This document shows positions 2 to 48,405 of a stretch of 64,000 nucleotides of DNA, piece after piece. The notes beneath the pieces are model-generated. The model did not search any database. It was not told the DNA's origin and worked only from the letters and a program-made list of their open reading frames with translations. The DNA comes from Oscillospiraceae bacterium (lineage in GTDB: Bacteria; Bacillota; Clostridia; Oscillospirales; JAAYXM01). The stretch lies in contig JAFSEA010000046.1 of NCBI GenBank assembly GCA_017435965.1, positions 2,974 through 66,973 of the forward strand, given 5' to 3'. The translations under genes and the position numbers were made by a program. Within the stretch, counting starts at the first letter, position 1, and every line of letters starts with the position of its first letter.

Positions 2-3000
2 ATACGGGAGGAGAATGCATATGTAAACGGTGCACTTATCGGGAATACATACAATGCAAGAATTTCCGCAAAAAAACTCGGCAACACCGTTTTAAGATTT
101 TCAGCAAAGAAAAACGGAGTTGAGTACACCCGTGATGTGACTGTTTCGGTAGTTGAATATCCGATACTCGACAAGGTAAATCTTACCCTTGCAAAAAGAG
201 CTGTTCCGGCAACAAGAAGGACTTCGGCAAGCTTTGAGCTTTTCCGTGTGGGAGACGGCAAGGAATATACAGAGGATTATACTATTCGCTATGAGAGTAC
301 CAATCCCAAGGTCGCAACGGTTGACGAAAAGACGGGTGAGATAGAAGCGTTGGAAGAGGGCGAAACGGTTATTCGTCTTACCGTTACCGACTACAAAGGA
401 AACGAGGTGTCGGCAGAGCAACCTCTTGCGGTAACGGAAAAACCGGTACTCAATTCTCTTTCCGTAAAAGGCAGTCAGATTCTTCTTCCGGGAGAAACTT
501 CAAAGCTTTCTGTCGAGGCTGTTATGACAGACGGTGTTGTCACATCGGCAGATGCATATGAAATAAGCTTTGAAAGCTCCGATGAAGAAATCATCACAAT
601 AACGGATGACGGCGAGATTACTGTGCAGAAAATCGGCTCTGCTGCAATAATCGTGACAGCGATAAATGAAAAGGGCGAGAAGAAGCTTACAGTATTTCCT
701 GTTGATGTTGTTGCGGAAACTTCGGATATAGTTGTCGATTTCGTGCAGACCGAAGAAGCAGACGGCAGAGGTGTTCCCTCTGTCACTCCGGGATATACAA
801 TACTTACCGAAGAAGGAAATGCAAACTATTTTAGAAAATTTTACTGTGAGGATTCCAAGAAACTCCAGGTTTTCCAAATAGGAACACCTTCAAACGGAAA
901 CAAGCCGTGGCCTGAAAACGGTGATACAAGCGGAACCTTTGCACTTTCGGTAAATGCAGACGGTGCAGGGTATTACAGTATGAGCGTCACCGGCGGCGTA
1001 TGGTATGCAGGAAGTGATTATTCCGTTTTTGTAAACTCTTCCTATGCAGGAGACGTGTCCTTCCATCAAAAGGACGAATCGAATACAAAACTCTTCTCGG
1101 GAGAGGAACAGAAGCTTAATACCGTATACCTCCAAAAGGGTGAAAACAAAATATATTTCCGCTTTAAGAAGAAGTATGAGGGTTCTGCTCCATATCTTGT
1201 TCTCAATAACATAACACTCAAGGCAGTAAAGGGCGATGTCGCCTTTAAAGAGCTTCTTATGAGCGAAATTCCAAAGCAGCTTGCTGTTGGTGAGATATTT
1301 GAGGATACTGTTTCTGTGGGACTTTCAGACGGAAGCGTTCTGTCGTTGGGACCCTCTGCAACCGGCGAAGAGCCCGATGAGAGAAACACAATTTCAGCAA
1401 AGCTTATCGGGGATGCCTGCATTGATATGACAGGCTTTGAATATGAGCTTTGCAAAGCAGACAAAAGAAGCTACAAGCTTGTTGCAAAAAAGCCCGGAGA
1501 GGCAAAGCTTGTTTTCAGTCTTACCATTGACGGAAAAACAGAGAGCTTTGAATATCCGATAACAGTTTTGGAAGATGAGCTTATCGGAGCAGATGCAAGA
1601 TGCGAGGCATCCGAGCTTTATGCAGGCGACTCATCAAAGCTTATTGCAAAAGCTATTTTTAAAAGCGGAAGAGAAAGCGAAAATTCTCAGTCTGCAGTCG
1701 CAGAATTTGAGTCTCTCACCCCTGAAATCGCAACTGTTGCAAACGGAATGCTTGTTACTCATTGTGAGGGCATTGCAAAGATAAAAGTGTCGCTCTCATT
1801 CCATAACGTTGTAACGGGTGAAGGTAAAACTGTCGAAGGTATTGCGGAAATTCCTGTTGAGGCACAGGGTATGTCGGGAATTGAGGCAACTGCCGGAGGC
1901 AGCAAAATTATCCGTCTTACGGAAAAGGGAAGAGAAGATACGGTGCCTCTTTATGCCGAGGCGATAAGCAATCTCGGAGAAAAGATGGATATGACGGGTG
2001 CTGTTGTTTCGGCAAAGGCACTTACCCCCGAATATGCGGAAATAAGCGGTCTTGATATTCTTCCCGTTTCGGAGGGAAATGCACAGTTTGAAGTAACTGT
2101 TACAACCAATGACGGACGCACCAGATCACAGATAATTACGCTTCGTGTTGCATATGGCAAGGACAAGGCGACTTATTATACTGCGGAAAAGGCTTTGGCG
2201 GCGCGCGAAAATGCAGAAAAATACAGTTGGGCAAGGAGCACTATCGAAAGCTATGTCAAGAGAGCCGATGGATATATAGAAAATCTTGATAAAATATACG
2301 ATCTCATCCCATCCGAGGGAATTCCCCGTACTATCACTCTTGGAGAAGCAGATGATCCGTCATCATATAACTGCAAATACTGCAATACCGACCTTATGGT
2401 TGAATACGGATCAATTCCATGGGTTCACAATCCGACAAACCGACCGTGGAAGATACAATGCCCCGATTGTAAGCGAGTATTCCCGACAAATGATTTTGAA
2501 AGCTTTTATAAATTAGGTCTCAATGAATACGGCGAATTTGACCGTATGCGTGCACTTAAAGCTCATAGGGAGCTGTTCGGAGATAAATCAGTAACAGAGC
2601 CCGGAAAAGAAAACAGCGCACAGTGGAAAAAATATTACGGCTACGGGGTGAAGGGCGGATACCTCACCAATGAGCTGTATTCCGATCTTTCCGTTTCAAA
2701 AACAATAAATTGCGGTCAGGGATTGCGAGACGGAGAAACAGAAGCGACCTGGGGTGTTGACGACAGCCTCGGTTATGTTCCGTCGATGAGTGACGGCACT
2801 CCGTATACCGTCAACAGCGGCACAACTATTGCTACCGAACGCCACGGATATATAGCCGAGTATGTTCACTTTGGTCTGTGGCGACGTGAAAGTGAAGGCT
2901 ATGCAGGAGCGCTTATTCGCAATGTGGTTATGGACTCTGCCTATGCGTATTTCTATACGGGAGATATAAAATACGGTCGGGTGGCGGCTGTTCTTCTCGA

Positions 3001-6000
3001 CCGCATAGCAGATTTTTACCCCTATTATGAGGTGAAACCGTGGATCGGAAGATTCCGTCTGAACGACGGCGGTTCAGGCTGCGGCGGTATTATGGGAAAT
3101 ATCGTAGAGTCTCAGGAAATGGTGAGATATATTTCAGCCTACGATATGGTTTACGATGTATATGACGATCCGTTTGTTGTAAACTTCATTGCAAACAAGG
3201 GAAAAACACTTAAATACCGTCATGCAAAGGAAACACCTTCGCAGATTCGCACAAATATAGAGGACGGCATTATAAGAACCGTTCTTCAGGGACTTCGTGA
3301 CCACTCAATCAACGGAAACTTCGGTCTCCCACAGAAAACCAATGCTGTTGCGGCAGTAGTTCTTGACAGTATGCCGGAGACCTCCGAGTGGCTTGATTAC
3401 CTTATGGCGGCAGGCTGGCACCGTGACCCTGCAAAGGAGGTTACGGGCGGAGGTATCAATGAAGTGCTTGTAAATACCATAGATGCAGACGGTCAGGGAA
3501 ATGAAGGCTCGCAGTATAACATTGCATGGCACACAAATCTTCTCTCTGTTCAGGAGGTGCTTGACGCCTATGAAAAAGCCGGAGAAGCAAACCTTTATAC
3601 ACATCCGAAATTTATACAGATGTTCTATTCAAACATTCCGCTTATAGCGACATACTACACTCCGGCAATAGGAGATTCCGGAACTACTCAGGGAAGCGGA
3701 CTGTGGGTACAGCAAAATGTTATGCAGGAGGGCTGGAAAAATATAGGTGATCCGATATTTGCACAGCTTTTATATAAGCTCAACGGAAACTCCGCAAAAG
3801 GGCTTAAGTACGGAATATCCGAAAGAAATCCCGAGCGTCTTGAAGACGAAGTTGAGGCAGTTATAAGAGAATACGGCGAATTTCGACCGAAATCGGAAAT
3901 GATGACAAACTTCGGATTCTCAATCATACGGGACGGTAATGAGTTTGTATCAACCTCGGAAGCAAATTCAAAGGATACACGCCGTGATTTGTGGATGTAT
4001 TTCGGAAACAACACAGGACACGCACATCTTGACACTCTCAATCTCGGAATGAGCGCATTCGGTCTTGAGCTTTTGCCGGACCTCGGATACCCCGAAATGG
4101 CAGACAGAAGTGCAAACCGTCTCCAATGGGTAACGGGAACAATCTCTCACAATACCGTTCAGGTTGATAACCGTGAGCAGTTCCACGGAATTGAAGAACG
4201 TGGAGATTCAAAGCATTTTGACGTGAGCGAAACGGTTTCTCTCATGGATGTTTCAACACCGTATATATACCCGTATTCTGTGGAGGAATATCGCAGAAGC
4301 GTTGTTATGATAAAGGTAAACGATGAGATTTCCTATGCAGTTGACTTCTTCCGTGTTCTCGGCGGCTATGAGCATGTTTACAGCTTCCACGCCGCAAGCA
4401 ACACAATGCCTTTCACAGAAGGTCTCGGAGAGCTTGTTCCGCAGATGAAAAACGGTGAGTATGCAGGAACTCTTGCAGGGATTGACGTGCCCTACGGCGC
4501 AGACCCGGGAACAATTTCGGGAACTCTTGAATATCCCAAGGGTTATACCTGGATTGATACCATTGATTATGCGGAAAATCCCGAAAACAAATTTGAAATT
4601 GACTTTAACATAAAGGATTTCAATAAAAATATCAAAGACTCATCCGGAATCCGTCTGCGCATGACGATGCACAATGAAGAGAATGTTGCAAAGGGTGCCG
4701 ATGTCGATGTAAAGATAGGAAATGGATATCCGCCAAATAAGAAAGAAAACAAAAATATCGACAAGCTCAAGTATGTCATTGTGAAAAATACGGGAAATGC
4801 ACTTGATACCGTGTTCACAACGGTGCTTGAACCTTACAGGAATGAACGTTATCTCACATCAAGTGAAGAGCTTAATATGACGGTTGTTTCCGGAATTGAG
4901 AAAGACGGTGCAGCACACCGTGCACTTAAAGTAACCCACGAAAGCGGCAGGGTGGATTATATTTTCTATGCAACGGACAATTCGGTAACATATAAAATCA
5001 CCGATGAAATTGCAGGAGAGCCCGAAGATATTACTTTCCGTGGATTTATCGGAGTTTACACGGTGAATTCCGAAGGTGTGAACATTTACAGCTATGTACA
5101 CGACGGTGATACAATCGGCAAAGAAACAGACTCTTTGTCTGCCGTGACAGGTGTGCTCAAAAGCGTTACAAAAGAGCTTTCGGTAAATAACGAGCTTGTG
5201 ATTATTCCGCAGGAAGAGCTTTCCGGAGAAATTCTTGCAGACCTTCCGGGACGTTACGTCTTTGTGGATAACGGAGCAGAGGTCAGAAGCGGAGCTTGGA
5301 GAATCGAAGATGCTTATATGCGCGGAGAGGATCTTGTTCTTGATGTAGGAAGAGTTACAGCCATTCGTCAGTATGTGGATATGTATGAGCCTGAAAAGGG
5401 ATATGTTTATACTGTCACACCCGGTCAGTCTGTCCGTATTCCGCTTTCCTACAGCGAAGACTTTGCACCGGTATTTGAGTCCGTAAGTGATTCACTTTCA
5501 GCTTCTGTCGGAAGCTTAGTCTCCTTTACCGTAAATGCTGTAAGCGAGCTTGGGGAAACGGTAATATATTCGGAGGAAACTCTTCCGAGAGGAGCAAGCC
5601 TTGATGTCACAACAGGCAAGATTACATGGACTCCGGGAAGCTCACAGGTTGGAAAGAACCACTTTGCAATAACTGCAAGTGATGAATCGGGAAGAAGTAC
5701 AACAATCCACTTCTACATAACGGTCTACGGTTCAACCTCCGGCGGCGGAAGCGGTGCAACCGCACCCACAACCCCCGATAAGGAAGACACAACCGGCAAG
5801 ACGGAGAAACCCGTAGGGGAGGACGCCCCTGTCCTCCCTCCTGAAGATGCGGAAACCGTCCGCTTCACGGACCTCGCCTCCCACGCCTGGGCGGCAGATG
5901 CAATAAACGCTCTTGCAGATAAAGGAATAGTAAAAGGCACAAGTGCAACAACCTATTCACCGGCAAATAATATAACAAGAGCAGACTTTGCAATACTCCT

Positions 6001-6439
6001 TGTGAGAGCGTTTGAAAAGGAATCGGACAACACCGAAAACTTCGCAGATGTAAGTGAGAGCGACTACTTCGCAGCTGAGCTTGCAATAGCAAGAAACACA
6101 GGACTCGTCGGCGGAATAGGTGATAATAAATTCGCACCGAGAGAAAATATCAAGAGATGCGATATGATGCTTATGGTCTATCGAGTTCTGAATACCATTG
6201 ATGCCTCCCTTGTGCAAAGGGAGGAGGACCGCCATACGGCGGTGGAGGGATTGCCTTCGTCGCAATACGCGGATTTTGAAGATGTTCCCGACTACGCAAA
6301 GGAAGCAGTCTCCGCCCTCATAGGTGCAGGACTTGTAAACGGCAAGAATAACCTCATCGCACCTCTTGATAACACAACTCGTGCAGAAGTCGCAGTACTT
6401 ATTAAAAGAGTATTAGACTATAAATCTTCACTTTCGTGA
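2..6439 (+). CDS. Giant SLH-anchored heparinase II/III-type surface protein, paralog A (5' end outside window)
   Basis: Frame 2 is open from nt 2, with no stop before the GTG at 137 used by the ORF track. The upstream residues (RFSAKKNGVEYTRDVTVSVVEYPILDKV) align with an internal part of paralog B (VKVDGEEYTEVVPVSGMEYPVLERV). Contains Big_2-like Ig repeats, a lyase-type core (HAHLDTLNLG, PDLGYP, SHNTVQVDNREQ), a He_PIG-like domain (TLPRGASLDVTTGKITWTP), a Gly/Pro linker and three SLH repeats (FTDLASHAWAADAINALADKGIVKG...). Confidence 0.85.
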   Translation: MREENAYVNGALIGNTYNARISAKKLGNTVLRFSAKKNGVEYTRDVTVSVVEYPILDKVNLTLAKRAVPATRRTSASFELFRVGDGKEYTEDYTIRYESTNPKVATVDEKTGEIEALEEGETVIRLTVTDYKGNEVSAEQPLAVTEKPVLNSLSVKGSQILLPGETSKLSVEAVMTDGVVTSADAYEISFESSDEEIITITDDGEITVQKIGSAAIIVTAINEKGEKKLTVFPVDVVAETSDIVVDFVQTEEADGRGVPSVTPGYTILTEEGNANYFRKFYCEDSKKLQVFQIGTPSNGNKPWPENGDTSGTFALSVNADGAGYYSMSVTGGVWYAGSDYSVFVNSSYAGDVSFHQKDESNTKLFSGEEQKLNTVYLQKGENKIYFRFKKKYEGSAPYLVLNNITLKAVKGDVAFKELLMSEIPKQLAVGEIFEDTVSVGLSDGSVLSLGPSATGEEPDERNTISAKLIGDACIDMTGFEYELCKADKRSYKLVAKKPGEAKLVFSLTIDGKTESFEYPITVLEDELIGADARCEASELYAGDSSKLIAKAIFKSGRESENSQSAVAEFESLTPEIATVANGMLVTHCEGIAKIKVSLSFHNVVTGEGKTVEGIAEIPVEAQGMSGIEATAGGSKIIRLTEKGREDTVPLYAEAISNLGEKMDMTGAVVSAKALTPEYAEISGLDILPVSEGNAQFEVTVTTNDGRTRSQIITLRVAYGKDKATYYTAEKALAARENAEKYSWARSTIESYVKRADGYIENLDKIYDLIPSEGIPRTITLGEADDPSSYNCKYCNTDLMVEYGSIPWVHNPTNRPWKIQCPDCKRVFPTNDFESFYKLGLNEYGEFDRMRALKAHRELFGDKSVTEPGKENSAQWKKYYGYGVKGGYLTNELYSDLSVSKTINCGQGLRDGETEATWGVDDSLGYVPSMSDGTPYTVNSGTTIATERHGYIAEYVHFGLWRRESEGYAGALIRNVVMDSAYAYFYTGDIKYGRVAAVLLDRIADFYPYYEVKPWIGRFRLNDGGSGCGGIMGNIVESQEMVRYISAYDMVYDVYDDPFVVNFIANKGKTLKYRHAKETPSQIRTNIEDGIIRTVLQGLRDHSINGNFGLPQKTNAVAAVVLDSMPETSEWLDYLMAAGWHRDPAKEVTGGGINEVLVNTIDADGQGNEGSQYNIAWHTNLLSVQEVLDAYEKAGEANLYTHPKFIQMFYSNIPLIATYYTPAIGDSGTTQGSGLWVQQNVMQEGWKNIGDPIFAQLLYKLNGNSAKGLKYGISERNPERLEDEVEAVIREYGEFRPKSEMMTNFGFSIIRDGNEFVSTSEANSKDTRRDLWMYFGNNTGHAHLDTLNLGMSAFGLELLPDLGYPEMADRSANRLQWVTGTISHNTVQVDNREQFHGIEERGDSKHFDVSETVSLMDVSTPYIYPYSVEEYRRSVVMIKVNDEISYAVDFFRVLGGYEHVYSFHAASNTMPFTEGLGELVPQMKNGEYAGTLAGIDVPYGADPGTISGTLEYPKGYTWIDTIDYAENPENKFEIDFNIKDFNKNIKDSSGIRLRMTMHNEENVAKGADVDVKIGNGYPPNKKENKNIDKLKYVIVKNTGNALDTVFTTVLEPYRNERYLTSSEELNMTVVSGIEKDGAAHRALKVTHESGRVDYIFYATDNSVTYKITDEIAGEPEDITFRGFIGVYTVNSEGVNIYSYVHDGDTIGKETDSLSAVTGVLKSVTKELSVNNELVIIPQEELSGEILADLPGRYVFVDNGAEVRSGAWRIEDAYMRGEDLVLDVGRVTAIRQYVDMYEPEKGYVYTVTPGQSVRIPLSYSEDFAPVFESVSDSLSASVGSLVSFTVNAVSELGETVIYSEETLPRGASLDVTTGKITWTPGSSQVGKNHFAITASDESGRSTTIHFYITVYGSTSGGGSGATAPTTPDKEDTTGKTEKPVGEDAPVLPPEDAETVRFTDLASHAWAADAINALADKGIVKGTSATTYSPANNITRADFAILLVRAFEKESDNTENFADVSESDYFAAELAIARNTGLVGGIGDNKFAPRENIKRCDMMLMVYRVLNTIDASLVQREEDRHTAVEGLPSSQYADFEDVPDYAKEAVSALIGAGLVNGKNNLIAPLDNTTRAEVAVLIKRVLDYKSSLS

Positions 6440-6447
6440 AAGAAAAG

Positions 6448-6483: not shown

Positions 6484-6506
6484 AAAGCGAAGATAAGGAG
6501 AAATAT

Positions 6507-9500
6507 ATGAAGAAATTATTATCGCTTATATTAACAACAGCGATGCTTATATCGTTTTTACCTACCGTAGCTTTTGCGGAAGATACAAGAGAAGAAGTGA
6601 TTTATTCTTTCCTTGAAGCGGACTATACGGGACTTAAACCCGATGGTATAACATATGCAAACAGCAATAACACATTGCAGTGGGTAGGAACAACCAGCAC
6701 CAACAAGACAAAGTATGGTTGGGAGGCAGGTTATGCCTTCTTTAATATCCCCGTGGGAAAATATGCCGCATATAAAATGAATATCCCGGCAAAGGGTGAG
6801 TATGTTGCACGTCTTGATTATATCTGCCGTGCGGCAGGCTCCGTTGCGGATATGTATATCATACAGGGAACGCCCGATGATATTGATGCGGCAATCGCAT
6901 CGGCAACGCCGGTGTTTGAGAATATAAATTTCCACAGCACCACCGACAAAGAGAAGAAATATACAACGGTAATCTTCAATGCGGAAACGGCAGGAGAATA
7001 CCTTATGGTCTGGGTAGGCAAGGATAACAGCGTATCCTACGCCGTGAGACCTATGAGCCTTAAGCTCACTCCATACACAAAACCCGTGTATGCCGAAACC
7101 GTTCACACAATGACAGATACGGAAATTGTGGGAAGAGACATAACCTTCACCTCACACATTCTTATGTCTGACGGAGAGAGGTTTATCCCGTCGGCGGAAG
7201 GTGACGGAATAAAGGCATTTTCGGAAACCGAGGACACCGTGGAGATAGTCTCCGAAAGCATGACCGACGGAGTTTATACGGTTACCTTTAAAACTTTAAA
7301 AACAGGTGTTGCAAAAATAAAGCTTGTTTCAACCGTTGAGGGAACACCTTACGAATCGGTACATACTCTGAATGTGATTGAACAGCCTCCGCTTTCACCT
7401 GTTGATATTGAAATGACTCAGGACACAATGCGTTTTACGGATAAAACTGCACCGTCGGAAACTTGGGAAACAGACGGCTTTGAGCTTGTTCTTGAGGGAA
7501 ATAAAATGACAACCTCAATTGCAAGATACACTCCCCGTGTGATAAAAGACCCCCAGGGGAAAACAAAGTATTTCGTTCAGCTTGATACGGGCACAAAGAT
7601 ATGGCCCACAGCGGCAAATGCTATGTTCACAATCAGAAAGAGAATATTCACACCGGGCTATTACAACGTGAGTTACAAGGGCGTTATGCTTAAGAATACG
7701 GGTGACTATTCAATATATGTAAACGGCGAGTATGCAGGCGATTTTGTATCTAATGACCCCAACGCAACAGATGCGGCGGCAAATCTCTATACGAAAGAAA
7801 AGAGTCTTAACACTCTCTATCTGCCGGAAGGATATGTTGAAATATCTTTCCGTGCAAGAAAGATATATTCGGGAAGTGCATTTTTCGTTCCTCACACAGT
7901 ATCACTTGTTCCGATTGAGGTGCAGGAGGCTCCGGAAATAAGTAAAGTAGAGCTTGCAATTTCCGAGAAGATTGCGGAGGGTGAGAGCGAGGACATAACC
8001 GCCCGTGTCCTTATGTCTGACGGCACTTACCGCCATTTCGGACTTGATAACGAGGGAAAAGCCGATGATGACAACAAGGTCATTGAGGTTATCTCCGACA
8101 ACCCCGAGATAATTGATATTTCCGAGGTTTCCTTTATGAACATCGGAACATCTGATGAAATAAAGTTTAAGGCAGAAGCAAAAGGAGTCGGAAATACAAA
8201 TATAAGAATAAAAGTCAAAGTAGACGGAGAGGAATATACGGAGGTCGTCCCCGTCTCCGGTATGGAATATCCCGTCCTTGAGCGTGTTGATGTGGCACTT
8301 GAAAGAAAAAACATCCCGGCAACAAGAAAGACAGAAGCAAGCATCACTCTCACGAGAAGCGAGGACGGAAAGCCCTATACGGATGAATATTCTGTGAGAT
8401 ACGAAAGCTCCGATACAGATATCGCAACAGTTGACGAGGAAACAGGTGAAATTACGGGACAAAATCCCGGAAGGGCAACAATTTATGCCTATGTAACCGA
8501 TTGGGCAGGCAACACAGTTACAGGAAGTGCAGAAATTGTAATTGCGGCAAAGCCTGTTCTCAATGAGATAAAAGCATCCGTTGACACTCAGCTTGTCACG
8601 GGACAGAGCAAGAAGATAACGGTGACGGGACAGATGGACGACGGAATCCCTGCAGATATGGAGGATTACGTCTGCGCCTTTGAAAGCACGGATGACAGTG
8701 TTGTATCGGTTTCCGAAGACGGCACGGTCACGGCTGTGGGCGAGGGTGAAGCGGCAATCTCCGTGACTGCAAAGAATGAGCTTTCAAAGAATTGCTCCCA
8801 TGTAATAATAATTTCCGTAAGCGATGATAAATGGGCTTTTGAAGTTGATTTTTCAAAGACTCAGACGGATGAGTCCAACCGAGGAGTGCTTCACGGAACA
8901 CCGGGATATACGATAATTGAGCGTGAGGACACAACCAATTATTATCGAATCTTCACATTCCCCGATACAAAGCAGAATGTGCTCCAGATTTTCACTCAGG
9001 CAAAGGACAAGCGTATGTGGCCTGAAACCTCCGACCCTAAGGGAGCTACCTTTGCATTCAATGTAGATGTTTCAGATGAAGGATTCTACGGTCTTGAGCT
9101 TTTCGGAGGGCTTTGGGAAGGCTCACCCACGTACTCTCTCTTTGTTGATGAAAATTATGTCGGCGACCACAGCTTCCACGAGGTGGGCGCTGTTCAGAAA
9201 ACCGACAGCGGAAAACAGCTCAACACGGTATATCTCTCCGAGGGAACACATTCCATCCGCTTCCGCCTCAGGAAGAAGGATAAGGACCTTCCCTATATGT
9301 ATGTGAGAAAGCTTGTTTTCTCACCACGTGAGGATGCAGGCTTTGAAAAAATTGAGGTAGAGCTTCCAAACGAGCTTGCCATAGGCGAAAGCGTAAGCGG
9401 AACGGCAAGGGTCAAAATGCGTGACGGAAGTATCCGTCATTTCGGACCTGATTTTGAAGGAAACGCAACAGATGAAGAGAATAAATTCACCCTTGATGTT

Positions 9501-14409: not shown

Positions 14410-14433
14410 GGGAACGACCTATGTGTCGTTCCC
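14410..14433 (+). terminator. Stem-loop after paralog B (GGGAACGAC / GTCGTTCCC)
   Basis: Perfect 9-bp stem with a 6-nt loop, 17 nt after the stop. No U-tract, so the terminator role is uncertain. Confidence 0.3.
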
Positions 14434-14473
14434 TCTCGATTTACGAAAAAATCAACATACAGGAGGGAAAACG

Positions 14474-17906: not shown

Positions 17907-18016
17907 AGAAAAATCTCCCATATAGAAATTTTTATATTTTTGCTTGAAATTATTATAACATATACACATTGAAATTGATATAATAAAATTGAAAATATAA
18001 AAAATGGAGAAGTGAA

Positions 18017-23636: not shown

Positions 23637-26600
23637 ATGAAAAGATTTATCTCAACATTGCTCGTTTTATGTATGGTCTGCAGTTTTGTGCCCACAATAG
23701 GTGCAGAACCGGCAGAAGCTTCAAAAAGCGGAATAAGCGTAGTTTATGACTGGGGAACGCAGATGAAAACAGAAACGGAAAACGATCCGGCTCCTCTCAA
23801 GGATGCTGCTTTCCTATCGCAGTTTACATTTGACAGTTCCCATAATTTATGGAAATATGACAGCCAACAGTCCTGGTCTACCGTAACATGGAGATACGGC
23901 AATTACGTTCAGTTCAACAGAAGCGGTGGCGGTCTCTGGATGGTTTTTGAAATTTATGTGCCGAAAACCGGTATGTATACACTTGAACAGAAGTATGCAA
24001 AATTCGGAGGAAGTCAGTCGGATATCAATGTATATATGATTCCGAAAGAAAACGGAGCCGCTTTCACAACAGCCGATATGAAAGATGCCAATAAAGTTCT
24101 CACCCTTGACTGCAAAGGCACAAGCGGCGGCATTGTCGGAGATATTGCAACGACAGATAAAGAACTTTCATCGGGTTATTACTATGTAGCTTATCTGCAG
24201 GTAAAAACTGCCGATGGCACAAATGTTGCACTCTTTGGTGACCTCACCCTTAACGGCGGTGAGGGTAAAGCCGTTACGGAAATAACATCCGTTTCTGCAC
24301 CGGCCGAAGTGAAGGTGGGAGCAACGGGAAGTGTGACAGCCGAGGTTTATTATAGTGATCTGACCTCCGGCAGCGCAACTGCCGGTGATGTTACATATGA
24401 AAGTGACAATACCGATGTTCTTGAAATCAACGAAGCAACAGGTGCATATACTGCCAAAGCTTCGGGCGTTGCAACCGTTACCGCAAAGTCGGGCATTCTC
24501 CAAAAGAGCATTGAAATAACTGTGGGTGATGTTGAAAGAAGCGGAATAAGCGCAGTTTATGACTGGGGAAAGCAGATGAATCCGGGATCGGACAATGGTT
24601 CTCTCAAGGACACTACCTTCTTGTCACAATTTACCTTTGACCGTTCACACAATTTGTGGAAATATGACAGTCAGCAGTCATGGGCAACGGTCACATGGCG
24701 ATACGGTGATTATGTTCAGTTCAACAGAGGCGGTGGCGGTCTCTGGATGGTCTTTGAAATATATGTACCCAAGAAAGGTGCATATACACTCCGGCAGAAA
24801 TATGCAAAGTTTGGCGGAAGTCAGTCGGATATCAATGTGTATATGATTCCGAAAGAAAACGGAGCCGCTTTCACAACAGCCGATATGAAAGATGCCAATA
24901 AAGTTCTCACCCTTGATTGTAAAGGCACAAGCGGCGGCATTACGGGAGATACTGAAACAACAGTCAAAGAGCTTCGGGAAGGCAATTATTATGTAGCCTA
25001 TCTGCAGGTGAAAACTGCCGATGGCACAAACGTTGCCCTCTTTGGGGATCTTACCCTCAACGGAGGTTCGGGAAAAGTTGCGACATCAATAAACTCCGTA
25101 TCCATACCGTCGGATGTGAGAATGGGAACTACGGGAACTGCAACAGCCGAGGTCTATTACAGCGACCTTACTTCGGGACCTGGAGACAATGTTACATTTG
25201 AGAGCAGCGCTCCCGATGTTCTTGAAATCAATGCAACAACAGGTGCATACACAGCAAAGGCAGGCGGCGTTGCCACCGTTACCGCAACTGTTGGCAACAT
25301 AAGCAAAAGCATTGAAGTAAAAGTAGGAAATGTTGAAAAAAGCGGAATAAGCGTTGTTTATAATTATTCGGCACAGATGCCCCTGAGAACGGGAAACGAC
25401 ACGGCGAGCGTTTCGGATATGGAAAAGTTCACCTTTGATTCCTCTCACGGACTCTGGGCTTATGCCGCATATTCCGGAAGCGATGTGCGTTTCAGAAACA
25501 AGAGCACCATTCAGCTCAATTCAAACAATTATTGGGTTGCAATGGAAGGCTATGTTCCCAAAAGCGGAGCATATAACATCGAGCAGAAATACAGTACATA
25601 TCCTGGAAGCGGAACTCTTGATGTGTATATAATTCCAAAGGGTGATAACACTTCATACAATGCATCGCTCATAAACGGTGTTTCGCCCACACTTTCACAG
25701 AACTGTGACGGTGAAAACGGAAACTTTGTTGCACTTTCTACACCTGCAATAAAGGAAAACGTATATCTTGATGCAGGATATTATTATATAGTTTATAAAT
25801 CAAACGGCGGAAGGGCAATATTCGGAAACCTCACCCTCAACGGCGGCGAAGGACGTGAGCTTGTTGATTTTGAAGTCGTAAAGCCCGATTTTATCGCCGA
25901 GGGAGAAGCGGGAGAAGTCTCTGTTGTTGCTTATTACAGCGATGCAACAAGCGAAAACTACGCAGGTGAAGTATCGTATGCAACGGAAGACGGAGACATT
26001 CTGAATATTGACGAAAACGGTGCATATGAGGCAATTTCTTCGGGAACTGCCGTTGTAACCGTAGAAGTCGGCGGACTTAAAAAGGATGTCACCTTTGATA
26101 TAAGAGGAAAGAGCGGAATAACTGTAATCTATGATTATGCAAAAGAGTTGCCGCTTTCAAGCTCAAGACAAACAACAGAGTTTGACCTTGGACTTTTCTC
26201 CTTTGAAAACTCAAAGGGACTCTGGGCATATGCAGGACATAACGGAGGCGATATACGCTTCAGAAACGGCAAAATATTCCAGCTTGCCGAAAAGAATTAT
26301 TGGTTTGTAATGGAAATATATGTTCCGAAGAGTGGTATGTATAATCTTGAGCAGGAATATACCACATATCCGGGCAGCGGAACATTGGATGTATATGTGC
26401 TTCCGAAGGGTGAAAATACTTCCTACAGCGACACACTTATAAAGGAAAAAGCCCCCACCTTCTCACAGAGCTGTGAGGGAGCTGACAAAGCATTCACAGC
26501 CCTTTCTGAACCGTCAATAAAGGAAAATGTGTATTTCGACAACGGATATTATTATATAGTTTATAAATCAAACGGCGGCAGAGCAATGTTCGGAAACCTC

Positions 26601-29600
26601 ACCCTCAATGGCGGTGGGGAGCGTGAGCTTGCCACAATTTCCTTTGACATTCCCGAAATTATGGTAAAGGGCGATGGCGGACTTATCGCACCCATAGGAA
26701 CAATGAGTGACGGTACTGCCTTCTCCGTAAAAGACGGATATATTTTCTCAAGCGATAACGAAGATGTGCTTTATGTAAACCGTGAAACGGGAGAATATAC
26801 TGCAAGTGGTGCAGGTGTTGCAACGGTTACCGTTTCTTATGATATCGGAAGAATGATAACCTCCGAGAAAAAGGTTGAGGTTATTGAAGGCGCGGCGGCA
26901 GGCAAGCTGTTTATCTATGATTTTGCAGAAGCAATCCCCGAATATGGAACAGATAAGGCATTTTCCGAGCTTTCAAGCGATGATGCGAGCGGTGCATATC
27001 AATTTGCATCGGCAAGTCAGAGTGGAGTGGGTACTCAGATTCAATACAGAGACACATTCATAAATCTTGGAAAAGGTGAATGGTTCGCCTTTGAAATTGA
27101 CATCCCCGTATCGGGAATATATTCGATAAATCAGAGATATGGCAAATACAACAACTCAACGGGTGCTCTTGAAGCATACATTATTCCGAAAAACGGAAAC
27201 TTTGATATCAGCACCATCAATAACCTTGATGCAACCGGCACACAGAGCTGTTTTGACGGTGATGCATCCGAATATTCGGAAAGTGCAACAGTTTCCGACT
27301 TCGGAGTAGATTTCTTCGAGGCTGGCAAATACTATGTTGTTTACAAGGCTAAATATGGTAGAGCAATGTTTGGAAATCTCATACTTGACGGAAGAAACAC
27401 ATTCAAGAAGCTCATTGTATCTGCTCCGAAGAGTATAGGCGTTGGTGAGCGTGTTGAAATAGGCATAGAGGCAAAGTCTCTTGATATGACAACAATCGAC
27501 ATAGAAACCCTCAATTTGAAGAGTCTTTCATCTGTTCAATTTGCCCTTACAACAGAAATCGGTGACAACAACGAATGTTTTGTCTATGGTGAAAATGAGG
27601 GTGCTTCCGAGATTACAATCACGGCAGATGACGGTGAATTCTCCGATTCAAAGACAGTTGAGATTAAAGTAATTGACTCAAGTGAAGTTCAAAATGTCGA
27701 AATTGATATTTCCGATTATATCTATGTGAGAGCTTCCGAAAACATCAAATTTATCGCTCATATGGGAAGCGGAAAGACTATAGAAATACCGGATGAGACC
27801 TATGAAATCATAGCATCGGAGCCTGAAGGTGCAGGTGTGGTTTCGGGAAATTCCATTACCGGAAATGCAGAAGGAAAGATAACTTTAAAGGCAAGTGCAG
27901 ATTTCAAGGGTGAAATGAGAACTGCCGAAAAGGAAATAGACATTCTTGAGGGAATGTCAAAGCAGGCTCCCACATACTACACCTATGAGATGCGCGAAAA
28001 CGTTAAAAAGAATACCGAAAAGTATTCCTGGGTACGAAGTGAAGTAAATGCGAAAAAAGCAGATGCCGACATCGCTTTAGAGAACCTTGACGCATATTAC
28101 GATATGATAATCGGTGAGGGAATTCCGAGATCAAGAAGTATGAAGACGAAAGGTCATCCCGAAATTGATAATTGTCCTTACTGCGGAGAATATTATCAAT
28201 TTGCGTGGAAATATGATTTTCTCAATCGTCCGTGGAAGGCTCAGTGCCCGGGTTGCAAACGTTTCTTCCCTTCAAATGATTTTGAAAGCTTTATGAAGCT
28301 GGGACTTGATGAACAGAAATATTACGATGTTGACAGAGCAAGACAAGCACATCACGAGATGCTTTTTCACAAGGGCGGAGAAGAATGTACCTGTGAGAAA
28401 CCCGAAACGCCCTATTCCGAAGAGTGGTATGAGTTCTACGGATATGGAAATGAGGAAGGATATCTCTACAACAAGCTTTATAAAGAAGTCGGAAGCGAAA
28501 ATTCAAGTGTGGAGCTCCTTCCCAGCGAAAAGGCCGAGCGCTGGTGCGTTGATGACGGCTTCGGATACTACACAGGAAGAGTTTTCAATACAGGCGTAAA
28601 GGAAATGTATTGCCCGATAGCATTATATAACTATTCTTTGTTACCGGGAATTTCAAACAGAATAAGCTCCCTCGGAATGGCTTATGTATACACGGGAGAG
28701 ACAAAATACGGCGTTGCGGCGGCAATACTTTTAGACCGACTGGCAGACGTTTACCCGAGCCATGATGCCGATTCCTTTGACACCGGTGCATTCCAGATAA
28801 CAGATGGAGGAACGGGAAAAGGAAAAATACAGGGTCTTATTCAGGATGCATATTTCGCAAAGGGCTTTGCTCTGCGTATCGATGAGGTGTTCCCCATCCT
28901 CAAGGATGAGGCCGCCTGCAATCAGGTTATTCAGTATCTGAGCCCGAAAGCAGATGCAATGGGTCTTGAAAATAAGAAGAAAACCGCAGAGGATATATGG
29001 AGAAACTGGGAAGAGAATATTCTTCTTGAGAATTTTGAGGCGGCAAAGCTTTATAAGGTCGGAGGTAACTTCGGCACATACCAGGCTGCCATTGCGGCAA
29101 CTGCGCTTGTTCTTGACAAGAAGCCCGAATCCGATGAGATGATGGATTGGTGCTTCAGAAGCGGTGGAGTTGTTTATCCCCAGAACAGCGAAACGGGAAC
29201 CTACTACAACACAGGTGGAAACATCAATGCCCAGATTGTTGATGAAGTTGACCGTGACGGTCTGGGAACAGAATCCTCCGCAAGCTACAACTGTATGTGG
29301 TGGGAAAAGCTTATAAATATTGCAGAAATGTCTGCAAAATACGGTGATCCGAAATATGATCTTTATCAGAATGTAAAGTTCCTCAAAATGCTGGAGGCAT
29401 TTTCCGATCTCGTAATGACAAACTCCCACACAGTTCATATCGGTGACTGTTCTTCGGGTATCGCATCAGCTACACTCCTCGGAAATGTAAAGCTTCTCTC
29501 CACGATATTCCCGTATGTAAAATACACACCTATGGCTGAAAAGATTGCAAAGTATATAGCATTATATTACAACTACAATCTTGACGGCTTCAGAGAAAGT

Positions 29601-32165
29601 GTTTTTGCGGAAAATCCGGAAGGTCTCGGCGAGGAGATTATGAGCTTTGTCGAAAATGAAGACGGATTCACGGAAAGCAAAATGCTTGCAGGATATGGCT
29701 TCTCGGTGCTTCGTGCAGGTAAGAATTATAAATCCGTGAGCGATTCAACCGAAAATAATAACCTCCGTGACTTCTGGATTTACTTTGGTGGTGCTCAGTC
29801 TCACAGACACCTTGATGCACTCAATCTCGGTATCGAGGCATATGGTCTCAACATAGCTCCCGACCTTGCATACCCCGTAGATGCCACAGTAAATGCAGAG
29901 CGTATGCAATGGACGAGCACAACCCTTTCTCATAACACCGTAACCGTTGACGGACAGCAGCAGAAGAACATCACTCTCCCCGGAAAACCGTTACATTTTG
30001 ATGATTCGGGCATGGTAAAGGTTCTTGATACATCTGTTCCGGAAGTATATGAGGCAACATCGGAATACAGACGAACGGTTGTTATGATTGAAGCGGACGA
30101 CGACATAAGCTATGGCGTTGACTTCTTCCGTGTCGTTGGCGGAAATGAGCATATCTACAGCTTCCACGCACTCAGCGGTGACGATGCCTCCGTTGTTGAC
30201 GGACTCACACTTGTTCCGCAGGTTGATGAGCCGCAGAGTGACTGGACAAGTGAAGACACAAGCTCCTATGCAGGTGCTGACATCAAATACGGTCCTGACC
30301 CGAATCCCATGAAAGACTACAACTACGTCACATATTATCCGAGAGGAACAACGTGGCTCCGCGATGTACGTCGCTCCGATGATGTTGTAAATGACTTTAC
30401 GGCTGATTTCAAGATAACAGACTATAACCGTGTGATAAAGGACAACAAGGATATTCACTTAAGCCTCACAATGGTAAACGATTTTGAGCTTTCTGAGGTT
30501 GCATTTGCAAAGGGTAAAGTTCCTGAAAGAGCAACCAACAAGAATATTCCTTCACACCTTGAGTATATGCTCGCAAAGCGTGAAGGAAAGAACCTCGACA
30601 GCTTGTTTACCGCAGTATATCAGCCGTATAAGAAGGAAGCATATATATCATCGGTTGAACAGATTGTCCCTGAGATAATCAGCGGAACAGAGAAAAACGG
30701 CGATATCGCAAAGGCTGTAAAGGTTACCCACACAAACGGCAGGGTTGATTATATCATCTATGCCACAAACGATGAAGTAACGTATCAGCTTGAAAACAAC
30801 GAAGCTCTGACATTCAGCGGTTTTGTGGGCGTATGGACATTAAATGCAAACCGTGAGATTACATATTCCTATGTCCTTGGCGGAGAAGGCGATGTAACAG
30901 GAAAGATTTCAGGCTTCACGGAAGGGCTCTCCACCAATAACTACATTGATATAACACCGGATAAGGCAGTTTCCCCTGAAAGTCTTGCAGGAAAGTATAT
31001 CTTTATTGAGCACGATGGAGTGGGAAATGCCGCATATGAAATACTTTCCGCAGAAAAGAAAGCAGATGGAGATATCCGTCTTGATATCGGAACAGTAACA
31101 ACAGTTCGCAAGTATATGGATGCAAAGGATTTCGACAAGGGTTATGAATATAACATTGCAAAGAAACAGAAGTTTGTGATTTCAATGCCTGTCATATCGG
31201 ATTCGGCTCCCGTATTTGAAACATATGACGGTGGCGTTGCCGGCGTAAATAGTATATACGAGAGAAAGTTTACGGCAACAAGCTCACTGTCGGGAACAGA
31301 AATTGAGTATATCGGAAGAACTCTCCCGAGAGGTGCCACCATTGATTCGGAAACGGGACTCTTCACATGGAAACCCGCTTCTTCGCAGGTTGGAGATAAC
31401 CACGTTGCCATAACTGCAAGAGATTCTGACGGACGTGAAACAACCATACATATCACCATAACGGTTTACGGTTCAACCTCCGGCGGAAGCATCGGCGGTG
31501 CAGGTAGCGGTGGAACAGGCACGACCACAATACCTCCGGCTGAAAAGGAAGAAGAAAAAGAACCTTCAACCGATGTGGAAAACGGCGGTTCCGACGTTCC
31601 GCAAACTCCGGATTCGGAAAATGTCCGCTTCATAGACCTCGCCTCCCACGCATGGGCCGAGGATGCAATCAACTCTCTTGCAGATGAAGGCATTATAAAG
31701 GGCACAAGCGAAAATACCTTCTCTCCCGGAAACAACATAACAAGAGCAGACTTTGCAATTCTTCTTGTGCGTGCATTCAAGCTTTCTTCCGAAAACACAG
31801 AGAACTTCTCTGATGTCAAGGCTTCCGATTACTTTGCAAGTGAGCTTGCAATAGCACGAAATGAAGGACTTGTCGGCGGAATCGGTGATAATAAGTATGC
31901 ACCATACAACAACATCACCCGTCAGGATATGATGGTTATAGTTTACCGTGCACTTAAATCAATGGACAAACTTGTAGGGGTGGATATCATCCGCCCGGAA
32001 AACGAGGATTTTGAAGATGTAGCAGACTATGCAAAGGAAGCGGTTTCGGTCCTCATAGGTGCAGGTTTAGTCAACGGAAAGAACGGGAAAATCGCTCCCA
32101 CCGACTTCACAACCCGCGCAGAAGTTGCGGTACTTATCAAACGTATTCTCGAATATACCAAGTAA
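23637..32165 (+). CDS. Giant SLH-anchored heparinase II/III-type surface protein, paralog C (2842 aa)
   Basis: RBS GGAGGAG; signal peptide MKRFISTLLVLCMVCSFVPTIGA. Five unassigned modules alternate with Ig-like domains. Core carries CPYC...CPGC, HRHLDALNLG, PDLAYP and SHNTVTVDGQQQ. Ends with a He_PIG-like domain, a Gly-rich linker and three SLH repeats. Confidence 0.9.
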   Translation: MKRFISTLLVLCMVCSFVPTIGAEPAEASKSGISVVYDWGTQMKTETENDPAPLKDAAFLSQFTFDSSHNLWKYDSQQSWSTVTWRYGNYVQFNRSGGGLWMVFEIYVPKTGMYTLEQKYAKFGGSQSDINVYMIPKENGAAFTTADMKDANKVLTLDCKGTSGGIVGDIATTDKELSSGYYYVAYLQVKTADGTNVALFGDLTLNGGEGKAVTEITSVSAPAEVKVGATGSVTAEVYYSDLTSGSATAGDVTYESDNTDVLEINEATGAYTAKASGVATVTAKSGILQKSIEITVGDVERSGISAVYDWGKQMNPGSDNGSLKDTTFLSQFTFDRSHNLWKYDSQQSWATVTWRYGDYVQFNRGGGGLWMVFEIYVPKKGAYTLRQKYAKFGGSQSDINVYMIPKENGAAFTTADMKDANKVLTLDCKGTSGGITGDTETTVKELREGNYYVAYLQVKTADGTNVALFGDLTLNGGSGKVATSINSVSIPSDVRMGTTGTATAEVYYSDLTSGPGDNVTFESSAPDVLEINATTGAYTAKAGGVATVTATVGNISKSIEVKVGNVEKSGISVVYNYSAQMPLRTGNDTASVSDMEKFTFDSSHGLWAYAAYSGSDVRFRNKSTIQLNSNNYWVAMEGYVPKSGAYNIEQKYSTYPGSGTLDVYIIPKGDNTSYNASLINGVSPTLSQNCDGENGNFVALSTPAIKENVYLDAGYYYIVYKSNGGRAIFGNLTLNGGEGRELVDFEVVKPDFIAEGEAGEVSVVAYYSDATSENYAGEVSYATEDGDILNIDENGAYEAISSGTAVVTVEVGGLKKDVTFDIRGKSGITVIYDYAKELPLSSSRQTTEFDLGLFSFENSKGLWAYAGHNGGDIRFRNGKIFQLAEKNYWFVMEIYVPKSGMYNLEQEYTTYPGSGTLDVYVLPKGENTSYSDTLIKEKAPTFSQSCEGADKAFTALSEPSIKENVYFDNGYYYIVYKSNGGRAMFGNLTLNGGGERELATISFDIPEIMVKGDGGLIAPIGTMSDGTAFSVKDGYIFSSDNEDVLYVNRETGEYTASGAGVATVTVSYDIGRMITSEKKVEVIEGAAAGKLFIYDFAEAIPEYGTDKAFSELSSDDASGAYQFASASQSGVGTQIQYRDTFINLGKGEWFAFEIDIPVSGIYSINQRYGKYNNSTGALEAYIIPKNGNFDISTINNLDATGTQSCFDGDASEYSESATVSDFGVDFFEAGKYYVVYKAKYGRAMFGNLILDGRNTFKKLIVSAPKSIGVGERVEIGIEAKSLDMTTIDIETLNLKSLSSVQFALTTEIGDNNECFVYGENEGASEITITADDGEFSDSKTVEIKVIDSSEVQNVEIDISDYIYVRASENIKFIAHMGSGKTIEIPDETYEIIASEPEGAGVVSGNSITGNAEGKITLKASADFKGEMRTAEKEIDILEGMSKQAPTYYTYEMRENVKKNTEKYSWVRSEVNAKKADADIALENLDAYYDMIIGEGIPRSRSMKTKGHPEIDNCPYCGEYYQFAWKYDFLNRPWKAQCPGCKRFFPSNDFESFMKLGLDEQKYYDVDRARQAHHEMLFHKGGEECTCEKPETPYSEEWYEFYGYGNEEGYLYNKLYKEVGSENSSVELLPSEKAERWCVDDGFGYYTGRVFNTGVKEMYCPIALYNYSLLPGISNRISSLGMAYVYTGETKYGVAAAILLDRLADVYPSHDADSFDTGAFQITDGGTGKGKIQGLIQDAYFAKGFALRIDEVFPILKDEAACNQVIQYLSPKADAMGLENKKKTAEDIWRNWEENILLENFEAAKLYKVGGNFGTYQAAIAATALVLDKKPESDEMMDWCFRSGGVVYPQNSETGTYYNTGGNINAQIVDEVDRDGLGTESSASYNCMWWEKLINIAEMSAKYGDPKYDLYQNVKFLKMLEAFSDLVMTNSHTVHIGDCSSGIASATLLGNVKLLSTIFPYVKYTPMAEKIAKYIALYYNYNLDGFRESVFAENPEGLGEEIMSFVENEDGFTESKMLAGYGFSVLRAGKNYKSVSDSTENNNLRDFWIYFGGAQSHRHLDALNLGIEAYGLNIAPDLAYPVDATVNAERMQWTSTTLSHNTVTVDGQQQKNITLPGKPLHFDDSGMVKVLDTSVPEVYEATSEYRRTVVMIEADDDISYGVDFFRVVGGNEHIYSFHALSGDDASVVDGLTLVPQVDEPQSDWTSEDTSSYAGADIKYGPDPNPMKDYNYVTYYPRGTTWLRDVRRSDDVVNDFTADFKITDYNRVIKDNKDIHLSLTMVNDFELSEVAFAKGKVPERATNKNIPSHLEYMLAKREGKNLDSLFTAVYQPYKKEAYISSVEQIVPEIISGTEKNGDIAKAVKVTHTNGRVDYIIYATNDEVTYQLENNEALTFSGFVGVWTLNANREITYSYVLGGEGDVTGKISGFTEGLSTNNYIDITPDKAVSPESLAGKYIFIEHDGVGNAAYEILSAEKKADGDIRLDIGTVTTVRKYMDAKDFDKGYEYNIAKKQKFVISMPVISDSAPVFETYDGGVAGVNSIYERKFTATSSLSGTEIEYIGRTLPRGATIDSETGLFTWKPASSQVGDNHVAITARDSDGRETTIHITITVYGSTSGGSIGGAGSGGTGTTTIPPAEKEEEKEPSTDVENGGSDVPQTPDSENVRFIDLASHAWAEDAINSLADEGIIKGTSENTFSPGNNITRADFAILLVRAFKLSSENTENFSDVKASDYFASELAIARNEGLVGGIGDNKYAPYNNITRQDMMVIVYRALKSMDKLVGVDIIRPENEDFEDVADYAKEAVSVLIGAGLVNGKNGKIAPTDFTTRAEVAVLIKRILEYTK
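23724..27393 (+). repeat. Tandem array of five (unassigned ~190-aa module + Ig-like domain) units, period ~770-815 nt
   Basis: Unit starts are marked by KSGI[ST]V[VI]Y at about 23724, 24538, 25338 and 26107, with a diverged fifth at about 26893. Each module ends with FGNLTLNGG, FGDLTLNGG or FGNLILDG. Confidence 0.85.
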
Positions 32166-48402: not shown

Positions 48403-48405
48403 ATT

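Follow-up and report, generated by a model that had tools for sequence, protein, structure and literature searches.

For Uly1040 of Alteromonas macleodii, an enzyme of polysaccharide-lyase (PL) family PL40, catalytic roles are known from structure, docking and mutagenesis: Asn245 and Trp246 neutralise the carboxylate, Tyr305 is the acid and His485 the base, the latter being activated by Asp358, His487 and Mn2+, and substrate binding is helped by Glu301 and Tyr511 (PMC12915356). E301, Y305, D358, H485 and H487 are all important or essential by mutagenesis, and PL40 as a whole is reported to be 92.6% Bacteroidota and marine (PMC12915356). A wall-anchored protein listed for Paenibacillus sp. JDR-2, Pjdr2_1997 (CBM4,9/AL3/HP/3SLH, 229 kDa), is of an uncharacterised alginate-lyase/heparinase type (PMC4765114); it is the only precedent we found for the genes studied here. 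These are genes A, B and C within a stretch of 64,000 nt from an Oscillospiraceae bacterium (contig JAFSEA010000046.1, positions 2,974-66,973; assembly GCA_017435965.1), which we refer to as the window. With moderate confidence, we read their products as secreted, wall-held enzymes of a large, uncharacterised polysaccharide-lyase-like family, whose activity and acidic substrate we infer. The genes and their parts, with carbohydrate-binding modules abbreviated as CBM, immunoglobulin-like domains as Ig and surface-layer homology repeats as SLH, are located as follows.

2-6439, plus strand: gene A, 2,145 amino acids (aa) seen; open from nt 2, 5' end cut by the window start
2-2023, plus strand: Ig/CBM-like N-terminal modules of A
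2024-5545, plus strand: lyase-like core of A
~5465-5725, plus strand: He_PIG domain of A, followed by a linker
~5861-6436, plus strand: three SLH repeats of A
6507-14393, plus strand: gene B, 2,628 aa
6507-6578, plus strand: signal peptide of B
6579-9998, plus strand: CBM-like/Big_2 modules of B
9999-13499, plus strand: core of B (1,167 aa)
13500-13745, plus strand: He_PIG domain of B, followed by a Gly/Pro/Thr (G/P/T) linker
~13854-14390, plus strand: three SLH repeats of B
23637-32165, plus strand: gene C, 2,842 aa, beginning with a signal peptide
23727-27671, plus strand: five tandem jelly-roll + Big_2 units of C
27750-31301, plus strand: core of C
~31293-31466, plus strand: He_PIG domain of C, followed by a linker
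~31626-32162, plus strand: three SLH repeats of C

A sequence-only reading of the window had described three paralogous open reading frames (ORFs) that share a core, a He_PIG domain, a linker and three SLH repeats. Coordinates, frames, blastp and Pfam all agree with this description, and the motifs it had named (HxH[LV]D[TA]LNLG, PDL[GA]YP, SHN[TS]V and TLPRGA..D..TG..TW.P) are all present in the translations. By blastp, A and B are 54% identical over 2,132 aa, with the alignment beginning at B residue 555, while A/C and B/C show 41% and 42% identity over about 1,500 aa. Pfam finds three SLH stretches per protein (E-values of 2.6e-29 for A, 5.4e-31 for B and 5.6e-27 for C), the He_PIG domain (5e-17, 2.4e-13 and 6.7e-8, respectively) and Big_2 domains within the set; the N-terminal halves are without a catalytic domain. 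The combination that defines SLH-anchored surface proteins, i.e., a Sec signal peptide plus three tandem SLH repeats, is present, with signal peptides visible in B and C and the N-terminus of A falling outside the window. Given the signal peptides and the C-terminal SLH triplets, the proteins are likely displayed on the wall, which supports the tethering proposed by the sequence-only reading.

The β-domain common to PL12/15/17/21/39/40 is described by the Pfam family Hepar_II_III_C (gathering cut-off 24 bits). Whole proteins score 38.2 (A), 40.4 (B) and 22.7 bits (C) with this model, and the β-domain scanned alone yields 42.4 bits for B and 25.1 bits for C, both above the cut-off. That is, all three proteins fall into the respective superfamily, C only with its β-domain scanned alone.

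To describe the core itself, we used a family alignment of 38 core sequences (A1), which is the basis for the AlphaFold model, the profile searches and the conservation counts given below. The model of the B core (predicted local distance difference test, pLDDT, 89.1; predicted template modelling score, pTM, 0.88) starts with a small β domain, followed by helices, a poorly structured stretch with four cysteines (Cys4), a helical toroid (core residues ~293-635) and a large β region (643-1161). Its two main domains map to the window as follows.

10875-11903, plus strand: (α/α)6 toroid of the B core (model secondary structure, Foldseek, hhalign); holds N1614, E1676, Y1680 and D1733
11925-13481, plus strand: β-sandwich (Hepar_II_III_C-like) with extra C-terminal β domains of the B core (Pfam, 42.4 bits); holds H1848, H1850, D1868 and H1891

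Foldseek searches of the PDB place PL17 structures on top (9irq and Alg17c 4ojz/4nei; E about 1e-23, target template modelling (TM) score 0.68-0.71) together with PL40 Uly1040 (9vtk; E 6e-23, TM 0.63). The respective alignments span 770-800 columns against chains of 705-803 residues, so that both domains of PL17 and PL40 match the B core. PL39 Dp0100 follows in rank, then PL12 heparinase III, PL21 heparinase II and PL15, the latter three with E-values of 1e-13 to 1e-14 and a root-mean-square deviation (rmsd) above 10 Å. Lower ranks are taken by PL35, human dermatan-sulfate epimerase 1 (6hzn, E 7e-11), PL33 and PL8. By model and Foldseek, the core thus shows the toroid plus β-sandwich fold of polysaccharide lyases. 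An idea of gellan lyase/PL33 activity was dropped, since the structural match to BtPL33HA (E about 1e-10) is far weaker than those to PL17 and PL40.

At the sequence level, the family profile finds Uly1040 among all PDB sequences with E 8.8e-13 (HMMER pairs profile positions 539-932 with Uly1040 448-840) and PL17 chains with 1e-11 to 5e-6, in each case via the β-domain only and for PL17 limited to the HxH/SHN region. It is the use of a profile that makes these relatives detectable, as a search of the PDB with the single B core sequence gave nothing meaningful. We also aligned A1 by hhalign to a PL40 alignment (A2) rebuilt from database relatives of a Uly1040 fragment, mostly truncated PL40 proteins, and obtained a probability of 99.7% and E 1.2e-26 over 672 columns at 12% identity. 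The significant PL match on which the sequence-only reading had made its depolymerase claim depend is therefore found by profile (8.8e-13), by hhalign (99.7%) and by structure (about 1e-23).

These matches raise the question whether A, B and C simply belong to PL40 or PL17, i.e., whether they are wall-displayed ulvan or alginate lyases. Both families provide the best sequence and structure matches, and some homologues show faint Pfam Ulvan_lyaseC matches. Identity, however, is only 12-17%, and a hidden Markov model (HMM) of PL40 reaches the β-domain only (E 7e-15 for B, 8e-12 for A and 4e-11 for C), with -3.4 bits for the toroid part. Against a dbCAN-type threshold (E <1e-15, coverage >0.35), this in-house PL40 HMM leaves B borderline and A and C below. 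None of the three proteins has a Pfam match to the Ulvan-lyase families, to Alginate_lyase (PF05426) or to the PL40 N-domain, such that neither PL40 similarity over the whole catalytic module nor a recognisable PF05426 toroid joined to Hepar_II_III_C, as in PL17, is observed. With about 1,000-1,100 aa, the core is also some 300-400 aa longer than the 700-850 aa found in PL17 and PL40; the surplus consists of an N-terminal elaboration with the Cys4 insert (CxxC...CxxC) and of additional C-terminal β domains. Finally, ulvan or alginate is not expected as a food of ruminant and human hindgut Clostridia or of soil Paenibacillus. We thus regard ordinary PL40 or PL17 membership as very improbable. 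Among solved structures, PL17 and PL40 come closest, though only at superfamily distance.

The same data bear on true glycosaminoglycan (GAG) lyases of the heparinase II/III kind (PL12/PL21-like), which would act on heparan sulfate, heparin, chondroitin or hyaluronan of the gut host. Such an assignment would agree with the Hepar_II_III_C matches, with the fold class shared with heparinases II and III, with the gut origin of the closest relatives, and with neighbouring genes of hexosaminidase type (two DUF4838 genes in the window, GH20 in 5 related loci) as well as ROK and SIS genes nearby. On the other hand, a search of all PDB sequences with the family profile picks up neither PL12 nor PL21 at E <=1 and reaches PL15 Atu3025 at E 0.17 only, i.e., no membership in PL12, PL21 or PL15 by similarity to characterised members, and Foldseek places PL12 and PL21 about ten orders of magnitude below PL17/PL40. 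The window is also without a sulfatase or GH88 gene, neighbours elsewhere are heterogeneous (fucosidase, rhamnosidase, rhamnogalacturonase-like, GH42-like), and the family is common in soil Paenibacillus, too. Action as a genuine heparinase is hence rather improbable in our view. Of the PL12/PL15/PL17/PL21-type fold named by the sequence-only reading, the fold class holds, while membership at the sequence level does not and PL17 and PL40 turn out to be nearest.

The catalytic residues known from Uly1040 are found in the cores. By hhalign, core positions E512, Y516, D569, H684 and H686 pair with Uly1040 E301, Y305, D358, H485 and H487, and the HMM alignments place the HxH histidines on Uly1040 H485/H487 and Alg17c 413/415 and the SHN motif on a metal-site His. 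E512, Y516, H684 and H686 are invariant in 38/38 cores and D569 is kept in 37/38. Also invariant are N450 (motif GNFG), H727-N728 (SHN) and D688, while D/E704 and Y707 are conserved, too; H1850, D/E1868 and H1891 of B coincide with metal-site positions. The respective residues are listed below.

Gene A, plus strand: N1106, E1168, Y1172, D1225, H1340, H1342
Gene B, plus strand: N1614, E1676, Y1680, D1733, H1848, H1850
Gene C, plus strand: N1811, E1879, Y1884, D1937, H2056, H2058
11346-11348, plus strand: N1614 of B, putative carboxylate neutraliser (toroid)
11532-11534, plus strand: E1676 of B (toroid)
11544-11546, plus strand: Y1680 of B, putative acid (toroid)
11703-11705, plus strand: D1733 of B (toroid)
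12048-12050, plus strand: H1848 of B, putative base (β-sandwich)
12054-12056, plus strand: H1850 of B, putative metal site (β-sandwich)
12108-12110, plus strand: D1868 of B, putative metal site (β-sandwich)
12177-12179, plus strand: H1891 of B, putative metal site (β-sandwich)

The PL40 constellation (Asn, Glu, Tyr, Asp, His base and metal His) is thus present, the Asn being only a probable equivalent. A loss of the catalytic residues, which the sequence-only reading had named as speaking against it, is not what we observe: the Tyr, the His and the base-assisting His and Asp are kept in A, B and C. Lyase chemistry is suggested by the homology to PL40 and PL17, and a lyase mechanism appears well supported by the fold match together with the aligned and conserved Uly1040 residues. 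The earlier depolymerase claim is therefore backed at the level of lyase-type fold and residues, from which activity and an acidic substrate would follow by analogy.

Several observations weigh against this interpretation. For the toroid segments of all three cores, Pfam offers no family match even with a threshold of E <=10, and HMMER aligns the β-domain alone to PL40 and PL17. With each of three hhalign settings, the GNFG Asn falls into an insert of 11 residues when compared with the SNW motif of PL40, which makes its equivalence ambiguous, although a backward ungapped extension from the following helix brings the family Asn and the PL40 Asn within one residue of each other. In the literature, we found no biochemically characterised family member. 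Furthermore, the window lacks the enzymes that usually act after a lyase, i.e., GH88/GH105 and KduI/KduD, and these do not recur in related loci, either. The Pfam scan covered ORFs of at least 150 aa (the short ORFs 61236-61745 and 61951-62496 were left unscanned), and no GH88/GH105, sulfatase, KduI or KduD family was found among them, in accordance with the sequence-only reading; nor do nine Pfam-annotated homologue loci hold a GH88/GH105, Kdu or sulfatase gene. A last point is that this fold and its His/Tyr residues are also used by a C5-epimerase, human dermatan-sulfate epimerase 1. In this epimerase, related His/Tyr chemistry abstracts the C5 proton.

As an alternative, the core might be no lyase. 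It could be a uronate C5-epimerase or modify polymers in some other way, or it could be catalytically silent and serve glycan binding or adhesion as part of a giant S-layer-associated protein. Beside the epimerase match (6hzn, E 7e-11), this would fit the lack of downstream genes for unsaturated uronates in the window and the very large, adhesin-like Ig/CBM arrays. Still, the whole catalytic and metal constellation is strictly kept across 38 diverse cores, which speaks against catalytic silence; the co-transcribed genes for a solute-binding protein (SBP) and for catabolic enzymes, together with AraC control, agree with a role in acquiring nutrients; and no extracellular bacterial epimerase of the core fold is among the structural matches obtained here. 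We judge a non-lyase function unlikely. Genes A, B and C probably represent a new lyase family inside a known fold superfamily, i.e., a good lead for enzymology that adds no new principle.

The family also has parts of its own. The Cys4 insert (CxxC...CxxC), which resembles a zinc ribbon and belongs to the N-terminal elaboration of the core, is located as follows.

10437-10535, plus strand: Cys4 insert of B (C1311, C1314, C1340, C1343)
2372-2470, plus strand: equivalent in A
28173-28256, plus strand: equivalent in C

Of the 38 family cores, 30 have all four Cys and 8 lack Cys at every one of the four positions. This all-or-none pattern fits a structural zinc ribbon and suggests that the Cys4 set is an optional one in a secreted core; matches to zinc-finger families are weak only.

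The repeat units of C, delimited by motif and alignment, each comprise a jelly roll of about 177 aa and a Big_2 Ig domain, five in tandem. For the unit model (pLDDT 89.4), Foldseek returns generic matches to jelly rolls (CBM/MAM/ephrin receptor) and to Ig domains; at the level of single domains, the xanthan-binding module MiXBM ranks first (TM 0.69). The N-terminal modules have no significant Pfam match, with hints only of CBM_35 (E 0.012) and Golvesin_C (E 0.004), and a word-indexed search with the jelly-roll alignment found nothing; the module matches gave no clue to the substrate. Searched with an HMM of the jelly roll, the fetched loci show 1-6 copies of it in 32/89 family ORFs; the module also occurs in 7 accessory ORFs and in 47/132 top family representatives. 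Given this occurrence in both family and accessory ORFs, the module seems dedicated to the A/B/C family.

One such accessory protein lies in the window and was overlooked by the sequence-only reading.

20229-22847, plus strand: gene D, secreted accessory protein of 872 aa; two jelly-roll + Big_2 units, then a C-terminal domain of ~300 aa

D and the N-terminus of C are 59% identical over 575 aa (blastp), and their units are 59-75% identical to each other. D has neither SLH repeats nor a lyase core. Proteins with related D-type C-terminal domains occur in at least 12 related loci; some match Flg_new_2 (divergent InlB B-repeat), while D itself stays below the respective threshold.

The size of the family was assessed by a profile search among 1.84 billion representatives (clusters at 50% identity), which yields 3,842 proteins with E <=1e-3, of which 1,237 also have E <=1e-30. 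Among the top 150, most are 2,000-4,100 aa in length, and one family member (P0184, 4,066 aa) carries two complete cores in one polypeptide. Among contigs of one genome per species, at least 373 stretches encode relatives. The best 80 of these loci come from metagenome-assembled genomes (MAGs) of gut Oscillospiraceae/Eubacteriales, sampled from the caecum and rectum of goats, from water buffalo and from Hadza humans, as well as from anaerobic digesters and from Paenibacillus species, and the closest relative of B among the listed loci comes from a goat-caecum MAG (86% identity). Counted within these 80, one MAG (SIG480) accounts for at least 14 loci and another (JAZSHZ01) for at least 13, followed by MAGs with at least 7, at least 6 and at least 6. 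The sequence-only reading had considered both the very large genes and the triple paralogy as unusual. Given the median length of 2,363 aa for family ORFs in the fetched loci and the copy numbers per MAG (at least 13-14 loci), large size and paralogy are rather the rule in this family.

Two family loci are sometimes found within about 15 kb of each other (L010/L042 and L043/L072; contigs SVLF01 and JAZSHZ01, loci L008-L079). Stand-alone members of about 1,000 aa without SLH repeats also exist (L001 5272-9948, L086 6207-9932); these adjoin large Pfam-less proteins of 945 and 1,241 aa, and L001 also holds two aldose 1-epimerase genes, which adds to the partners without assignment.

Within the window, the neighbours of A, B and C are as follows.

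14423-16033, plus strand: large solute-binding lipoprotein (SBP_bac_1), probable start ATG 14474, lipobox LALCAC
16101-16898 and 17010-17969, minus strand: two AraC-type regulators with cupin sensor domains (Pfam), divergent beside the apparent A-B-SBP operon
18017-19279, plus strand: GFO/IDH/MocA oxidoreductase (Pfam)
19295-20161, plus strand: NAT_N/GNAT_C protein (Pfam)
22929-23564, plus strand: S9-type esterase (Pfam)
32192-32983, plus strand: xylose-isomerase-like TIM barrel (Pfam)
33005-33901, plus strand: Amidohydro_2 protein (Pfam)
33916-35847, plus strand: DUF4838-like glycosidase, 643 aa (by paralogy to the DUF4838 protein)
35914-37707, plus strand: ADP-ribosylglycohydrolase-domain protein (Pfam), C-terminal half of ~320 aa without assignment
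37780-38673, plus strand: creatininase-family amidase (Pfam)
38698-40032, plus strand: ceramidase-like protein (Pfam)
40088-42031, minus strand: DUF4838 protein (Pfam DUF4838 match)

The short gaps (68 nt between A and B, 30 nt between B and the SBP gene) and the strong terminator hairpin downstream (16065-16101, 16-bp stem) make A, B and the SBP gene look like one operon. No genes for an ABC permease or ATPase adjoin the SBP gene or are found elsewhere in the 64 kb. Around C, an apparent 11-gene operon covers 18017-40032 (plus strand); intergenic gaps are short, terminator-like sites inside it are weak only, and it ends at a strong hairpin (40044-40085, 18-bp stem).

The β-N-acetylglucosaminidases of GH163 and GH185 have DUF4838 as their catalytic domain (PMC10570127). 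The two proteins of about 645 aa at 33916-35847 and 40088-42031 are 31% identical (E 3e-91) and have no obvious signal peptide; the former is invisible to Pfam when scanned alone. PDB sequence searches with this 643-aa protein and with a recurrent neighbour of 855 aa came back empty, and no NCBIfam model covers the cores, the product of gene D, the DUF4838-like pair or the protein with the ADP-ribosylglycohydrolase domain. The ceramidase-like, creatininase-family and ADP-ribosylglycohydrolase genes near C are amidases in a combination that is unusual for a glycan locus, and a second neutral-ceramidase-like paralogue (42047-43378, minus strand) lies beside the one at 38698-40032 (plus strand). 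Further along the window (43392-49002), an AraC regulator is followed by genes for a glycyl-radical enzyme of 754 aa and the corresponding activase, for a ROK kinase and for a SIS-domain protein; the radical enzyme has no assigned reaction, since it stays far below every NCBIfam equivalog cut-off (best 275 vs. 678 bits). An Rfam scan of the whole window at gathering thresholds gave no RNA family, such that no T-box leader is called upstream of tyrS (53327-54598, minus strand), and a tandem-repeat scan was empty as well.

Over 85 related loci, recurrent neighbours are AraC regulators (33), large SBPs (17-19), D-type accessory proteins (12 plus 6), GFO oxidoreductases (6), GH42M/GLMA-like proteins (6), GH20 (5) and Amidohydro_2 (5). 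Among 109 immediate neighbours, SBPs (14) and AraC regulators (13) recur, while the others vary (fucosidase, rhamnosidase, rhamnogalacturonase-like, GH42-like, GDSL esterases). This variety suggests that different paralogues may serve different glycans. From the DUF4838, GH20, ROK and SIS genes and the amidases, it could be weakly inferred that the substrate holds both N-acetylhexosamine (HexNAc) and uronate.

Taken together, the favoured lyase reading would work as follows. The signal peptide would export the protein and the C-terminal SLH triplet would bind the secondary cell-wall polymer non-covalently. The G/P/T linker and He_PIG would form a stalk from which the N-terminal jelly-roll (CBM-like) and Ig arrays reach outward and capture polymer. 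The active site is predicted in the cleft between the (α/α)6 toroid and the β-sandwich, where N1614 (B numbering) would neutralise the uronate carboxylate, H1848, activated by D1733, H1850 and a presumed metal, would take the C5 proton, and Y1680 would protonate the leaving glycosidic oxygen. The resulting β-elimination would leave a 4,5-unsaturated uronate. Since an SBP gene adjoins and recurs, products may be imported via this lipoprotein under AraC-type control, and cytoplasmic enzymes of the surrounding operon would then finish them.

More tentatively, and possible rather than expected, A, B and C could be founding members of a new lyase family (at least 1,200 clusters at 50% identity, with its own jelly-roll module and Cys4 ribbon) that has expanded in uncultured gut Oscillospiraceae to at least 14 giant wall-anchored enzymes of differing specificity. 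These might feed a pathway other than GH88/GH105/Kdu, comprising the GFO oxidoreductase, the xylose-isomerase-like TIM barrel, Amidohydro_2, the DUF4838 hexosaminidases and the unusual amidases, with glycans of HexNAc plus uronate as substrates, for instance capsules of bacteria, teichuronic acids or GAG-like polymers without sulfate. The absence of GH88 and Kdu partners points to an undescribed route for unsaturated uronates.

If active, the family would add a large unassigned lyase group to the catalogue of carbohydrate-active enzymes and would explain the specialisation of poorly known, uncultured hindgut Oscillospiraceae (goat, buffalo and Hadza MAGs). About half of the catalytic module, i.e., the toroid, is invisible to Pfam, so that automatic annotation reports nothing but a faint 'heparinase II/III C-terminal' signal, which may suggest a wrong substrate. 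The cores are well-defined targets for expression, with clear mutational predictions.

Compared with known systems, the A/B/C cores share with Uly1040 (PL40, 9VTK, PMC12915356) the (α/α)6 toroid plus antiparallel β-sheet, and its Glu, Tyr acid, Asp, His base and metal-binding His all align to conserved residues. They differ by about 200 extra N-terminal residues with the Cys4 ribbon, by extra C-terminal β domains, and by a Phe instead of Trp246, the neighbour of the Asn in Uly1040. Uly1040 itself has two domains and 97 kDa and belongs to a mainly marine Bacteroidota family, whereas A, B and C are SLH-anchored multi-modular giants of Clostridia and Paenibacillus. PL17 (Alg17c 4NEI/4OJZ, AlgL17 9IRQ, Zobellia 7BJT) gives the best superposition (target TM 0.65-0.71, rmsd 4.5-5.8 Å), but identity is 13-17%, the core has about 1,100 instead of about 700 aa, and no alginate-related context is found. 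With PL21 heparinase II, PL12 heparinase III and PL15, the fold class and the Hepar_II_III_C β-domain are held in common. Human dermatan-sulfate epimerase 1 (6HZN) also has the toroid plus β-sandwich fold, but it is a eukaryotic Golgi enzyme of biosynthesis with a weaker match (E 7e-11), while the context of A, B and C is catabolic. The surface enzymes of Paenibacillus sp. JDR-2 and the chitinase ChiW (PMC5132251) have the overall build in common with A, B and C, being giant and secreted and combining CBM/Ig arrays with a C-terminal SLH triplet for wall display. These mostly belong to known GH or PL families, whereas the catalytic family of A, B and C is uncharacterised and has expanded to at least 13-14 copies in some gut Oscillospiraceae MAGs.

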